A stretch of 53,828 bases of DNA, taken from contig JBHLLF010000007.1 of assembly GCA_048885865.1 (NCBI GenBank), positions 62,776 to 116,603 of the forward strand, read 5' to 3'. Shown piece after piece: positions 831 to 30,460 of the stretch (position 1 is its first letter; the number at the start of each line of letters is the position of its first letter). Origin of the DNA: Candidatus Hermodarchaeota archaeon. GTDB taxonomy: Archaea; Asgardarchaeota; Thorarchaeia; Thorarchaeales; Thorarchaeaceae. A program made the position numbers and the translations under genes. The notes under the pieces were generated by a model. The model saw only the letters and a program-made list of their open reading frames with translations. It was not told the DNA's origin and did not search any database.

Positions 831-2809
831 TTCACAGTGATCGTGACAATTCCAATGTCTGTCAATTCTCCATCTGATACCTCATAGCCGAATGAGTCCA
901 CCCCGTACCAGTCGGGATTCGGCGTATATATGAATGAGCCATCTGGATTCAACACAAGTAATCCATGTGAAGGTCCAGACACTAGTATTGCTGTTAGTGC
1001 ATCGCCATTTTCATCAGTATCATTGGCAAGAACACCGTCTACCACGTCAATATTGAGAATAAAGTCCTCATTTGTGGTGTAGAGATCATCAACGGCGACA
1101 GGAGGTCTATTCACCGGAATCACAGTGATAGTGACCGTCGCCGTATCCAACAACATCCCATCCATTACTTGGTAGACAAACGTGTCTACCCCGTACCAAT
1201 CCGGATTCGGCGTATAGGTAAATGAACCATCCACATTGAAATCCAATAATCCATGCGACGGATATGTTACAATCTGAGAAGCTAGTACATCATCATCAGG
1301 ATCAGTATCATTTACAAGAACACCTGATAACGCGTCAATAATCAGTGGAACATTCTCATCGGTAATATAGAAATCGTCTTGAGCTCTTGGCGCATCGCCA
1401 ACAGCACTCACTTCTATTGAAACAGTCACGATGTCGCTATAATCTGTACCATCGAACGCCTGATAGGTGAAGTAGTCTGTACCATACCAGTCCGCATCTG
1501 GGACATAGTTCAGAGACCCGTCTGCATTGAGAGCAACTGAGCCATGGAGAGGCGCATCTACTAGAACGGCTATGAGAGAGTCGCCATCAATATCAGAATC
1601 ATTTTCTAAAATGCCAGGCGCAACCAAGTCCAGCGGCGTGTCCTCATCGATGGCATAACTATCATCGACTCCCACTGGAGCATCATTGACTGGATTGACA
1701 GTAATGGTGACAGTAGCGATGTTGCTAACAGTGAATCCATCAGTCACACTGTAGGTGAAGGTGTCAACGCCGTTGGAGTCTGGAAATGACGTGTATTGGA
1801 AGGAGCCGTCACCGTAGAAAGATAGAGTGCCTGATGAAGGTCCTGATTCAAGAACAGCTGTTAGTCCATCACCAATGTCATTCAGTAGAACGCCAGGAGC
1901 GGCCACGGAAAGCATGACATCCTCATGAGCAGTAAAGCTATCATCCACAGCCTCAAGTGGCTCCTGAATGCCTCCATCCAGATAGCCTAGTCCAATCTTT
2001 CCACTCTGGAAATGCTGTTGAATGTAATCTTCTGATAGAAGTTCATCATATACAGCTACTTCATCTATCAAACCATTGAAGAATACAGACGAATGACCAG
2101 CCATCGGATTTTGACCATATCCTATGTTGAATCTTGAGTATGGTAGACCATTATACGGGTCGTTGATCATAATCGGAGTATCCCTCGTACCATTGACGTA
2201 GAAAGTAACCTGTTGCGTATACGGGTCCAGGAGTTCCATAAGTACAGCAACATGGTGCCACGTGCCCGCATTCACTCTCAAGCCAGACCGAGCCATATTT
2301 GCTGGACTTGTAGACCCATCGTATCGGTCGAAGTATGGGACTCCATCCTCAATTCCAAAGTGGTACATCTTGCTCATTATATCATTCCCATTCTGAACGA
2401 TAGGTCGTACACCTTGAGTGTCAGGAAGCATCACCCATGCTTCGATTGTGAGTAATTGCTGGATGGACAGCGAGGGATCACCTCCACACTCAACCAGAGC
2501 TTGAGGATATAGGTCCACCCCAGTTCCAGCTATTCCTGGAACCCATATTCCACCATACCAGAGAGTTCCATCATTTCGGCCAATACTATCGTGAGCAATC
2601 ATTCCACCCCCCTCATTGAACTCCCAGTATGAAACCATGCCTGGGGGAGGGGGTAGTTGTGCAAGGGAATGTGCAGATTCGGGTTGAGTCAGCTCGGTAT
2701 CTGAAAAACTAGTGACCGGTGTGTTGGCCCCCAATGTTGCACTTGACAACAGAAGAATGAAAAACGCGAATGACAAACCGATCAGGCATACCTTATGCTT
2801 CCTAAGCAT
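2..2809 (-). CDS. Large secreted/surface protein: signal peptide + LamG-like domain + at least 7 tandem ~95-aa Ig/cadherin-like (Big_9, tandem-95) repeats; runs off the left edge
   Basis: Not in ORF track. Manual translation from ATG 2809: MLRKHKVCLIGLSFAFFILLLSS...GMVSYWEFNEGGG..AHDSIGRNDG (LamG-like), then repeats of PVAVDDxYxxDED..GVLANDxDxDGD..DGSFTYTPNPxFxGxDxFTY. The frame at both ends is consistent. Confidence 0.9.
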   Translation of the reverse strand, partial: MLRKHKVCLIGLSFAFFILLLSSATLGANTPVTSFSDTELTQPESAHSLAQLPPPPGMVSYWEFNEGGGMIAHDSIGRNDGTLWYGGIWVPGIAGTGVDLYPQALVECGGDPSLSIQQLLTIEAWVMLPDTQGVRPIVQNGNDIMSKMYHFGIEDGVPYFDRYDGSTSPANMARSGLRVNAGTWHHVAVLMELLDPYTQQVTFYVNGTRDTPIMINDPYNGLPYSRFNIGYGQNPMAGHSSVFFNGLIDEVAVYDELLSEDYIQQHFQSGKIGLGYLDGGIQEPLEAVDDSFTAHEDVMLSVAAPGVLLNDIGDGLTAVLESGPSSGTLSFYGDGSFQYTSFPDSNGVDTFTYSVTDGFTVSNIATVTITVNPVNDAPVGVDDSYAIDEDTPLDLVAPGILENDSDIDGDSLIAVLVDAPLHGSVALNADGSLNYVPDADWYGTDYFTYQAFDGTDYSDIVTVSIEVSAVGDAPRAQDDFYITDENVPLIIDALSGVLVNDTDPDDDVLASQIVTYPSHGLLDFNVDGSFTYTPNPDWYGVDTFVYQVMDGMLLDTATVTITVIPVNRPPVAVDDLYTTNEDFILNIDVVDGVLANDTDENGDALTAILVSGPSHGLLVLNPDGSFIYTPNPDWYGVDSFGYEVSDGELTDIGIVTITVNPVNDYPVALDDTYVMDEDGVLVVDSATGVLANDYDVDGDALEAYWLELPTNGDLIFNLDGSFTYTPNPDFWGIDSFTYLVYDGIDASEFATVTITVNAVQDAPVAVDDFYSIDEDTALSTYGAGIAGVLANDYDADGDPLEAVLVDYPVYGTISFDPDGNFLYVPEANFYGIDSFTYYLSDGVFTSNAAMVTITVNSVNDYPVAVDDMYVVDEDDVLVVDSATGVLANDYDIEGNALEAYWLELPTNGDLHFNLDGSFTYTPNPNFWGTDFFTYLI

Positions 2810-3109
2810 ATCTCTCTCTCTCCGATGGTGCGATGAAAGCTATCAAGGTATACCGATATCGATTGAGTTGTTCAGGGCAAATGCGGTGTCGATGTGTCAA
2901 TTCTCCCTCGCAACGCGGCTCGCAGTATGTGAAAACTACTTATTAATCAGGCCCAATTTTCCGGATTTTTGCAATGTTTTCGGAAAATGACTCACATGGT
3001 CCATTTACCAGCCGCAGATTTTGAAAATAGAAACATCGTAGACTCATACAGGCATATTGATTAGGTCTCAACTGGATTTAATAGGCAGATAGCATATTAT
3101 GCGCGTAAT

Positions 3110-3436
3110 ATGCCGGGAGGTCAGAGTGTGTCCCATCCTAGAGATGATGTTTCAGATGTGAAGATGCTTCGGATTGGCAGAGCATACGGGAGATTTTTCC
3201 TTCTTGAGGAGGAAGAGGAGAGAGACCTCGCACTTATCCGAATTGCCAGAGCATATGGGGAGTACTTCAATAGTCCTCAGGGAAGAGGAATCATCATGAC
3301 TATGGCGGAGGGGGAAAAATTCACACTCAAGTTCGAGGAGGAGATACTCATAGTCACGAAGGTTGAGGGCAAAGCTGTTGTAGAGGCAATGAAGTTGGAT
3401 GGGCGTGAGAGTCTGTTCAAATACAGTCCGACTTAA
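3110..3436 (+). CDS. Hypothetical protein with internal duplicated motif (LRIGRAYG / IRIARAYG)
   Basis: ORF with coding-like composition and TTTAATA upstream (~3077); start uncertain. Confidence 0.7.
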   Translation: MPGGQSVSHPRDDVSDVKMLRIGRAYGRFFLLEEEEERDLALIRIARAYGEYFNSPQGRGIIMTMAEGEKFTLKFEEEILIVTKVEGKAVVEAMKLDGRESLFKYSPT

Positions 3437-14457: not shown

Positions 14458-14595
14458 ATGACCAGCGAATCTGAAGACGTGTTGAAAGCTCTGTCCAGTT
14501 CAACGCGTAGAACAATCATGAGACAGATCTCTGAGAGAGGTAGTGCTACTTACACAGAGATAATGCAAGTGCTAGATCTCGACCCATCCGTCTGA
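14458..14595 (+). pseudogene. Truncated ArsR/HTH_20-type winged-helix regulator (45 aa)
   Basis: Not in ORF track. MTSESEDVLKALSSSTRRTIMRQISERGSATYTEIMQVLDLDPSV* stops just before the expected recognition helix. Confidence 0.7.
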
Positions 14596-14835
14596 AAGCG
14601 CATATTCCTTAATCGTCCTATTCAACTCCAGCTGCTCAAAAGATTCAGCTCGCGTCAAGTAGAGATGAGGCGTGACCCAATCATGGTTGAGCGCGGGAAT
14701 AGAAGGAACACATTCACGTTTGACCTGCTCCAATACTGCTGAGATTGCAGCATCTTCTGATACCTCTATGGTCCATCGATGCGATTCTACAAATGATTCA
14801 TTTGAACGTGTTCCAGTCGATATTATCAGCTTCAC
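14572..14835 (-). CDS. Ubiquitin-like (beta-grasp) protein, C-terminus apparently truncated, no diglycine
   Basis: TIEVSEDAAISAVLEQV and QLELNRTIKEYALSDG resemble ubiquitin TLEVEPSDTIENVKAKI and QLEDGRTLSDYNIQKE. GTG start after AGGTG SD (ORF track extends to 14889). Confidence 0.6.
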   Translation of the reverse strand: MKLIISTGTRSNESFVESHRWTIEVSEDAAISAVLEQVKRECVPSIPALNHDWVTPHLYLTRAESFEQLELNRTIKEYALSDGWVEI

Positions 14836-14979
14836 GGGAGAGCACCTGAAATCAGCGACAACAAAGCTGCTTCCATCTATTATGGGCATGATGTTTCAGC
14901 AATGGAAACCACGAACTCTTTAATCCAAATAATCCATCGGAAATGCCGTCTACCTTTTGCATAGTTGGATTGATGAAAC

Positions 14980-15297
14980 ATGGCTAAAGTAAGTCCCTTT
15001 GTGAAATTGCTGAGAGGCGAGTATGAGCTCACTGTTATTCTCCTACTTACAAGACTGAAAGGCAAGTCAAGAGCTGATGAGATCATCAAGGCAGGCTTGA
15101 AGACCAAGACGCTGCCAGCCCTCAATGGGGCAAGAGTGGCTGCGGCAAGGAAGTTCCTGCTGAAGAATGAACTCATCACAATTGAGAAAGAAGGCAAGGA
15201 GATTATTCATATCCTCACCAAGAAAGGAGCCAAGCTTGGCAGGCTACTCAATTCCATTGCGGATTTCATTGTAAAGGACCTGAACTGGAAGCGCTAG
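14980..15297 (+). CDS. Small basic winged-helix DNA-binding protein
   Basis: LLKNELITIEKEGKEIIHILTKKG wing signature. Confidence 0.72.
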   Translation: MAKVSPFVKLLRGEYELTVILLLTRLKGKSRADEIIKAGLKTKTLPALNGARVAAARKFLLKNELITIEKEGKEIIHILTKKGAKLGRLLNSIADFIVKDLNWKR

Positions 15298-27637: not shown

Positions 27638-28504
27638 TTGATTCCAATTTCTGAAGAAAATCTCCGTTTGAATCGAGAATTCATTGGGAAGATGTACAGT
27701 GCCGGCCCCATACTTGTCGATGCAGACAGTATTCGTCACTATGCTCTAGCCACCAATGAGAGGAATTCGCTATACACTGAGGAACAAGAGGACAAAGAAT
27801 TGATTGCACCACCAATATACCCAGTTGTATTCATTCCGCCTCTCCTTGAACAGCTCGTGGAAGAGGGAGAGGCAATGGGTCTTGATATTTTGAGGGTGGT
27901 TCATGCTGAACAAGAGATGACTTGGAATAGCGTAATTCGCCCCGGGGATGAAATCTATTCATCAGCTAAGATTGTAGAAATGAAGAAGCTGGGAGTGAAT
28001 GAGATGCTTGAGTTGGAGATTCTCTGCATGCGCCAAGACGAGCTTGTGGTGAAGATGCAATATCGCTTGATGCTCAGAGGAGAAAGCAAAAGTGAGCCAA
28101 AAAAAGCGAAACCTGTTGAGGTTCAGGACAGGGGAAGGAAGATTGCTGAGCAGAAAGTGTTTGTCACAGAGGACCAAGGCATAAGATATGCAGAAGCCTC
28201 TGGCGACCACAATCCAATTCACACTAGTGATGAGGTTGCGAAACTCGCAGGTCTCCCAAAGTCCATACTTCAGGGGCTGTGCACAATGGCCATTGCATCA
28301 CAGGCAATAGTAGATGAACTGCTGAATGGAGACCCATCTCGTTTAAAGATCATGAGGGTACGCTTCTCGAAACCAGTCTTAATGGGACAGGAATTGACCA
28401 CGGAGATATATGAAGCTGAACCAAAGGCACGCACTGTTCACTTTGAAACCAAGGATTCGAACGGAATCCCCGTCTTGACTCGTGGTACTGCAGAATATGT
28501 TTAG
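27638..28504 (+). CDS. Double hot-dog MaoC-family dehydratase
   Basis: VVHAEQE; YAEASGDHNPIH..GLPKSILQGL..RFSKPV. Confidence 0.9.
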   Translation: MIPISEENLRLNREFIGKMYSAGPILVDADSIRHYALATNERNSLYTEEQEDKELIAPPIYPVVFIPPLLEQLVEEGEAMGLDILRVVHAEQEMTWNSVIRPGDEIYSSAKIVEMKKLGVNEMLELEILCMRQDELVVKMQYRLMLRGESKSEPKKAKPVEVQDRGRKIAEQKVFVTEDQGIRYAEASGDHNPIHTSDEVAKLAGLPKSILQGLCTMAIASQAIVDELLNGDPSRLKIMRVRFSKPVLMGQELTTEIYEAEPKARTVHFETKDSNGIPVLTRGTAEYV

Positions 28505-28962
28505 CCAAGGAATGTATCTTGACTTACACGCACAGTATATACCTCTCCAGTCGCACACTTGTCCTCCCCAGAATATAGCGAGCATGAAACAGTAATCTTT
28601 GACCCATCGATCTTTGTAACTCGTGCCCTGAGTGTCACGGGCTTGTCAATCGGTGTTGGTCGTAGAAACCGAATCGACAGTCCTGATGTCACATACATGA
28701 AATGATCCTCACCACTCCCTTCAGCCTTGTGCGCAATGGCATTCGCAGTCCCTGTCCCATGACAGTCAATGATTGTAGCTATGATGCCACCATTGAGAAT
28801 GCCGGGAAAAGCCAGATGATGTGCTTTTGGCTCCCATACTGCTACAGTCTCTTCATCTTCCCAGTAGCTCTTTAGTTGAAGGCCGTGTTCATTGTTCTTC
28901 CCACACCCATAGCAGAGTGTGCCTTCGTACGGCCAGTAGTCCTGGATTGCTTCTTTTAACAT
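28501..28962 (-). CDS. PaaI-family thioesterase
   Basis: CYGCGKNNEHGL, GILNGGIIATIIDCH, FLRPTP. Confidence 0.9.
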   Translation of the reverse strand: MLKEAIQDYWPYEGTLCYGCGKNNEHGLQLKSYWEDEETVAVWEPKAHHLAFPGILNGGIIATIIDCHGTGTANAIAHKAEGSGEDHFMYVTSGLSIRFLRPTPIDKPVTLRARVTKIDGSKITVSCSLYSGEDKCATGEVYTVRVSQDTFLG

Positions 28963-29998: not shown

Positions 29999-30052
29999 CA
30001 GAATAACATCCTCTTTCGAAGAGGTTTTTTACTAATTTTCACAATCGTTATC

Positions 30053-30460
30053 ATGGTAGAAATGGTAGAGAAATCAGAAGAGGAATGGAAACTGACGCTC
30101 AGTCCCGAACAGTTCAAAGTCCTCAGACAGTGTGGAACGGAACCCCCATTCAGTGGGAAATATGTGTATCACAAAGAGGACGGTGTCTACGTTTGCGCTG
30201 GATGCGGAAACGAACTCTTCTCATCAGAAACGAAGTTTGAATCAGGGAGTGGATGGCCCAGCTTTTGGGAGAAACTCTCTGAGGAGAGTGTGGACCTCAA
30301 GCCAGACAATAGCTATGGAATGAGGAGGACTGAGGTGGTCTGTAAGAATTGCGGAGGCCACCTAGGACATGTGTTTGATGATGGTCCCAATCCAACAGGA
30401 CTTAGATATTGTATTAACTCATTATCCTTGGGCTTTAAGGAGGCTGATTCCTCGGATTAA
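30053..30460 (+). CDS. msrB: Peptide-methionine (R)-S-oxide reductase MsrB (Cys, Zn-binding)
   Basis: [40 protein letters not shown]. Confidence 0.97.

Follow-up and report, generated by a model that had tools for sequence, protein, structure and literature searches.

A truncated gene copy in a rare family of predicted ubiquitin-fold proteins from Thor- and Hodarchaeota

We analysed a stretch of archaeal DNA of 53,828 nucleotides (referred to as the window) and find that its minus strand carries, at positions 14572-14835, what is best read as the copy of a stand-alone beta-grasp ubiquitin-like protein (Ubl) gene that has lost its 3' end and is probably inactive. The family to which it belongs would not be conjugated and would act non-covalently; we estimate the probability of this combined reading at roughly three in four. 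The Ubl family is a new and still unnamed sequence family, even though the fold itself is very well known.

The open frame on the minus strand terminates at 14572, and the longest ORF that can be called mechanically (14572-14889, with an ATG at 14889; P0001) comprises 105 aa. A start codon 18 codons further downstream is kept in position, either as ATG or as GTG, in four related loci (L001-L004). In L001 an in-frame stop lies within the stretch matching the 18-codon extension, so the upstream part at 14836-14889 is non-coding. Given both the conserved start of the orthologues and the stop in L001, the real start is the GTG at 14835, giving 87 codons followed by a TAG stop; the first-pass annotation, which placed a Ubl gene at 14572-14835, thus had its coordinates exactly right. 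The DNA of the region 14836-14889 (minus strand) is conserved across L001-L003 and contains AGGTG at 14843-14847 as well as a TATA-like ATAATAGAT at 14875-14883, both upstream of the GTG, and we infer that it forms a 5' leader with promoter and SD. Within the gene, positions 14588-14835 (minus strand) are homologous to the rest of the family according to blastn and the family alignment: they encode residues 1-83, running from beta1 through beta2, alpha1, beta3 and beta4 up to ...YALSDG. The last part (14572-14587, minus strand) encodes a foreign tail W-V-E-I plus stop, which is antisense to the neighbouring HTH gene and stands in place of SILHLMSAVR.

A word-indexed search returned two close homologues, and HMMER, run exhaustively over 1.84 billion representatives, added three more at 40-43% identity. 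Profile searching enlarged the family to 30 proteins (the one in the window included). Overall we count about 35 homologues at 41-90% identity, all stand-alone and nearly all 93-94 aa long; the family set used below comprises 29 sequences and another 5 copies from genomes. The source records label the members only as 'hypothetical protein', assigned to Candidatus Thorarchaeota and in one case to Hodarchaeota. A six-frame scan of Asgard species genomes detected the family in 6 out of 400, namely in 5 of the 86 genomes of the window's own taxonomic family (f1) and in 1 of the 22 genomes of another family. The Ubl gene is accessory and rare, and its known members come exclusively from Thor- and Hodarchaeota. 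No relative was seen in the viral contigs scanned. Searches of genome contigs with back-translated peptides and, separately, with a degenerate C-terminal DNA pattern yielded no matches and missed known carriers as well, so that their outcome is uninformative on distribution.

Three candidate relatives from the exhaustive scan were set aside as unlikely, being repeat-derived ORFs: for P0007 the sole region reported is residues 8-24, within the non-coding N-terminal extension, while the matches to P0009 and P0010 consist of four short stretches that are repeated. The search for fused or longer forms returned a single protein, P0039 (227 aa), from an ENA contig of 952 nt. Its N-terminus resembles a signal peptide and its C-terminal part is a Ubl domain ending ...DGSILRLFTSIR; the family may have a longer form here, or the start may have been called too far upstream.

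The state of the window copy becomes clear from a genome of the same genus (G015, locus L004). There the Ubl gene is intact and is followed by a convergent small ORF and then by a gene for an HTH-membrane protein of 264 aa. With blastn, positions 1502-1746 of L004 correspond to 14834-14590 of the window (92.7% identity) and positions 2597-3279 to 14588-13906; about 850 bp of the G015 sequence (L004 1747-2596) is missing at the junction 14587..14588. The break falls between 14588 and 14587 (...TTTCAGACGG|ATGGGTCGAGATC...), with approximately 1 nt of microhomology. The 850-bp deletion joins codon 83 of the Ubl to the antisense strand of the HTH gene, resulting in the tail WVEI and a stop. It took out beta5 (the central strand of the fold), the conserved tail, the small ORF and residues 46-264 of the HTH-membrane regulator. 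G015, with its HTH gene intact, has the frame ...ERWVEI* on the strand opposite that gene (ORF L004 2446-2613). The window copy accordingly does not keep all strands: WVEI takes the place of residues 84-93, which hold beta5 and the tail, and where close orthologues end in ...SILHLMSAVR (...SDGSILHLMSAVR) the window copy ends in ...SDG-WVEI. The earlier observation that the final strand and Gly-Gly are missing is therefore true of this copy, and the loss of the strand is caused by the 850-bp deletion.

The other side of the junction is found on the plus strand at 14458-14595, where 45 codons are left of the 264-aa ArsR/DUF7347 gene (a wHTH domain plus membrane part). This stump has sub-threshold matches to HTH_20 and HTH_5 that stop at the end of the ORF, and it is cut just before the recognition helix; its intact orthologue in G015 (P0012) matches DUF7347 at 9.5e-10. 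The remnant overlaps the Ubl ORF by 24 nt, an overlap that is itself a product of the deletion. Two ways of reading through the stops were tried and rejected. Continuing the HTH frame through its TGA leads into Ubl antisense, unlike the intact orthologue, and continuing the Ubl through its TAG (for example with pyrrolysine) leads to 'HLHYLCVSS', which by comparison with G015 is antisense of the HTH gene.

The deleted state is derived, since a metagenome contig (L001) combines the upstream arrangement of the window with an intact Ubl 3' end. It might be argued that the organism carries an intact gene and that the truncation arose in assembly, for example through a collapsed or chimeric join. 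The genome is indeed a draft assembled from a metagenome (117 contigs, completeness 87%, contamination 5.3%), and an imperfect repeat lies beside both breakpoints. Nonetheless, the junction recurs in Logan assemblies of two other runs (L036 and L037), 100% identical over flanks of 4.7 kb and 1.9 kb, which argues against a one-off misassembly. It also lies 15 kb into the window, within a contig of more than 116 kb. We consider an artefact highly improbable. The repeat is a direct one of about 28 bp (about 19 of 28 positions identical), located just 3' of both breakpoints with an offset of 6 nt, at approximately 1747-1775 and 2603-2631 of L004 and at approximately 14554-14581 of the window; it may have promoted the deletion.

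The small ORF lost from the window encodes 54-72 aa between the Ubl and the HTH-membrane gene (L001:1726-1890 and L004:1779-1997, both minus strand). It has no Pfam match, and its N-terminus (..DDVLEILTNPLNRYILSVL..) is similar to the start of the HTH protein.

Damage at the 3' end of the Ubl gene is not confined to the window. In a close relative, represented by two differing assemblies (L002:426-692 and L003:457-723), a 2-nt insertion (AT) after ...KDY causes a +2 frameshift, and the old frame can still be read as ALLEGSILHLMSAVR, i.e. the conserved end. This frameshift is independent of the deletion in the window. Two of the four close lineages are thus damaged at the Ubl 3' end. That the gene was hit twice, separately, at one and the same end, and that its distribution is patchy, fits a dispensable gene undergoing loss. 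Over the 83 shared codons, the window and G015 differ by 8 synonymous and 11 non-synonymous changes, which points to moderate constraint and gives no power to show decay. The locus offers a clean example of gene decay: a single deletion shortens both of two convergent genes, and in a related lineage the Ubl has its own frameshift. As the central strand beta5 and the tail are gone, the window copy is presumably inactive. Some residual role may survive: the ORF is open, the start and promoter region are kept, and W-V-E-I is beta-strand-like, so that residual folding is conceivable.

The fold of the intact family was predicted with AF2 for the ortholog P0003. From the single sequence the model is poor (pLDDT 56), whereas with the 29-sequence alignment (A5) it reaches pLDDT 94 and pTM 0.84. 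The model has strands at residues 2-10, 15-24, 58-62 and 84-90 and a helix at 31-41, in the order beta-beta-alpha-beta-beta; beta5 comprises residues 84-90 and only 3 residues lie beyond it. Comparison with the PDB using Foldseek, a check proposed in the first-pass annotation, gave a top 50 consisting entirely of ubiquitin, ubiquitin mutants or variants and NEDD8, with Caldiarchaeum ubiquitin among them (E 1.6e-6 to 2e-5, target-normalised TM 0.82-0.88, identity 22-24%). The Foldseek-independent VIA-align found ubiquitin, the UBLs of Dsk2 and Rad23, Hub1, ISG15, SUMO, talin F0, the EccD Ubl and a bacterial Ubl, at Z 11.3-9.9 and an rmsd of 1.7-2.0 A over 72-74 residues (best value: Z 11.3, 1.8 A over 74 residues). 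The predicted fold is clear as a beta-grasp, but its sub-type is not separated by Z alone. A ubiquitin-type beta-grasp fold is thus predicted with confidence for the intact members.

Sequence comparisons point in the same direction at a much lower level of significance. In a Pfam scan of the 29 members all recurrent matches were to ubiquitin-clan families, each at sub-threshold level: DUF2604 (27 of 29, best E 4.7e-5), YukD (22 of 29, 2.6e-4), ubiquitin (15 of 29, 2.8e-3) and Rad60-SLD (8 of 29). No member exceeded the curated gathering cut-off for PF00240, PF08817, PF10790 or PF11976 (for YukD this is 27 bits, for DUF2604 25 bits), and ThiS (PF02597) gave no match at E <= 1 in any of the 29. 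When the family profile was run against PDB sequences with HMMER, almost only Ub and NEDD8 were returned, all in one register, with a best single-domain E of 0.047; the far lower values for polyubiquitin chains are sums over the repeats. In this register, profile positions 67-93 correspond to residues 48-74 of Ub/NEDD8 and position 23 to Ub 15, and the core matches (family versus Ub) are L69/L50, Y78/Y59, L80/I61, L86/L67, L88/L69 and R93/R74. The two ubiquitin alignments made earlier by eye fall in this same register. The earlier judgement that the protein is closer to Ub/YukD than to ThiS/MoaD/SAMP agrees with the profile results as well. The outcome named in the first-pass annotation as its refutation, neither a predicted beta-grasp nor any ubiquitin-clan profile match, did not occur. 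An hhalign comparison of the family with four Asgard ubiquitins of the phylum recovered the expected register and was not significant (E 0.029, probability 1.7%). As no sequence method is significant, a claim of homology with ubiquitin itself, going beyond a common fold, would rest on the predicted structure.

The window protein on its own has no match in Pfam and none among PDB sequences. One could take this, together with the overlapping plus-strand HTH ORF, to mean that the Ubl ORF is not a gene, that its likeness to ubiquitin is chance and that the HTH frame is the sole coding sequence. The chance of this is negligible in our view: length, hydrophobic pattern and end are conserved among the roughly 35 homologues, the fold is predicted with confidence, and the overlap amounts to just 24 nt created by the deletion.

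All intact members (the 29 sequences and the 5 genome copies) end in a ...DGSILRLMSxVR-like sequence, that is [LV]RLM[SCT]x[VI]R directly followed by the stop; nowhere else is the protein as well conserved as at this C-terminus. The first-pass annotation had asked whether intact orthologues end in Gly-Gly or are fused to another domain; the answer is neither. None of the approximately 35 members has a Gly or Gly-Gly C-terminus, and no fusion is found in the family apart from the doubtful P0039. In the HMMER register the last residue equals R74 of ubiquitin, so the proteins stop two residues before the end of Ub. Since all intact members stop at this position, Gly-Gly is absent from the whole family and was not lost by the window copy. 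A Gly-Gly end is required for activation by E1.

The genes for conjugation are lacking too. None of the 9 loci examined has E1, E2 or JAMM genes near the Ubl, and neither these nor RING genes were found in the window or at L001, L004, L012-L017 and L023-L028, which bears out the earlier remark on their absence nearby. No match to PF00240 or PF00179 was found in the genome (87% complete) from which the window comes, and its two ThiF-type E1-like genes are located on contigs other than that of the Ubl. Phylum-wide, E2 is present in 297 and ubiquitin in 289 of 400 genomes, and most other Asgard families have both; in the taxonomic family of the window, ubiquitin is seen in 0 of 85 genomes and E2 in 1 of 85 (a weak match). 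This agrees with the literature as regards ubiquitin: Thorarchaeota 'seemingly lack true ubiquitin homologues' and are the one major Asgard group without it (PMC9192718). The Ubl had been described as an orphan outside the usual Asgard ubiquitin operon. The orphan status holds, but the lineage has no such operon to be outside of. A few Thorarchaeota genomes do contain a ubiquitin-shaped protein, one that is rare, ends without Gly-Gly and has no partners for conjugation; it is not the 'missing ubiquitin' of Thorarchaeota.

These data bear directly on the possibility that the family is a conjugated modifier with a non-canonical C-terminus, its Arg being activated by a ThiF-type enzyme or another ligase, which would replace the missing ubiquitin. 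The strong conservation of the C-terminus with a stop always exactly at [VI]R, the ubiquitin and NEDD8 proteins at the top of both structural and profile matches, and the two ThiF-family genes in the genome would fit such a role, and a strictly conserved C-terminal residue could equally signal chemistry at the carboxyl end. Against this, not a single Gly end occurs, the model leaves just the 3 residues past beta5, no E1, E2, E3 or JAMM gene adjoins the Ubl at any locus and the lineage is without E2. Moreover, a protein present in 5 of 86 genomes of the family is no general replacement for ubiquitin, and the damage in two of the four close lineages strikes exactly this end. We therefore regard conjugation as quite improbable.

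Several known systems are close to the family. Ubiquitin and NEDD8 (PF00240, including the Asgard and Caldiarchaeum proteins) share the predicted beta-grasp and the small stand-alone format and give the best structural matches. The family differs from them by the absence of Gly-Gly, by the greater length of both the beta1-beta2 hairpin and the alpha1-beta3 loop, by the lack of E1/E2/E3/DUB partners in locus or lineage, and by a sequence similarity that stays below threshold. Hub1/UBL5 is likewise free-standing without a terminal Gly-Gly and gives a structural match at Z 10.8 (4pyu_A). Hub1 works by non-covalent binding and is a eukaryotic protein tied to splicing. No sequence search connects Hub1 with the family; the two proteins are about 11% identical when aligned by structure, and their C-terminal motifs differ.

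Prokaryotic counterparts are found in YukD/EsaB (PF08817) and the Ubl of EccD, which have an unconjugated ubiquitin fold; the EccD Ubl is matched at Z 10.4 and the YukD profile, as given above, in 22 of 29 members. Here the difference lies in the scores, all under the 27-bit cut-off, and in the gene context: no type VII or WXG100 secretion genes occur among the Pfam-annotated neighbours in the Ubl loci. DUF2604 (PF10790) is the commonest profile match, with none of its 27 scores over 25 bits. To our knowledge DUF2604 has no known function, and no mention of it was found in the literature searched. The small archaeal proteins of the ThiS/MoaD/SAMP/Urm1 type share the beta-grasp superfamily, but their C-terminus is Gly-Gly and they have an E1-like partner enzyme. 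They give no profile match to the family and are absent among the top 50 structural matches.

Like Hub1 and YukD, the family most likely acts by non-covalent binding. The conserved tail, together with the face around Y59 and M89 (equivalent to the I44/V70 patch of ubiquitin), would then form the contact surface. The small protein should be easily expressed, and it lends itself to asking what a ubiquitin fold does in an archaeon without conjugation machinery.

The only recurring neighbours of the Ubl are a hotdog (4HBT) thioesterase and MsrB. In the window their orthologues are located at 28501-28962 (minus strand) and at 30050-30454 (plus strand; SelR), respectively; the window thioesterase has an N-terminal CWGCGKNN motif. 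In other Thorarchaeota the thioesterase adjoins the Ubl or lies at most 15 kb away: it is on the same strand at a distance of about 12-60 nt in three arrangements (L014/L015, L023 and L028), and 5.5-15 kb off in G352, L012/L013, G015 and the window. MsrB directly adjoins the Ubl in L012/L013 and L028. Within f1 the thioesterase is present in 42 of 86 genomes, among them all five Ubl carriers, though these genomes are related and the count is not phylogenetically independent. We treat the co-occurrence as a lead, without taking it to show that the genes are functionally linked.

Small beta-grasp subunits such as TmoB act inside enzyme complexes. In a similar manner the Ubl might be an accessory subunit or regulator in thioester or redox metabolism, working with the thioesterase and/or MsrB. 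The recurring linkage described above would suit such a role, as would language-model features that place the Ubl near clusters of TmoB, YukD and phenol-hydroxylase P4 (scores 0.89-0.90). The linkage may be inherited synteny, however, and distances range from 0 to 15 kb. In 37 genomes the thioesterase occurs while the Ubl is absent, the sole genome on the Hodarchaeota side (G098) has the two on separate contigs, and no monooxygenase genes are found nearby. We rate this option as unlikely.

With as little weight we consider the family to be a Thor- and Hodarchaeota-specific descendant of Asgard ubiquitin, one that has outlived the loss of E1/E2/E3 or was re-purposed after it and acts through the invariant ...LMSxVR end. 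That end might then be a tightly bound ligand of a partner (possibly the thioesterase or MsrB), or serve a Gly-independent attachment chemistry.

Finally, the other flank of the Ubl gene shows changes of its own. A 105-aa gene at 14980-15297 (plus strand) is divergent from the Ubl gene and conserved in L001 and G015; it has no Pfam match and a winged-helix look by eye. In G015 a nitroreductase gene (PF00881; L004:612-1501) lies between this neighbour and the Ubl gene. As it is absent at this spot in both the window and L001, the Ubl locus has been rearranged more than once.
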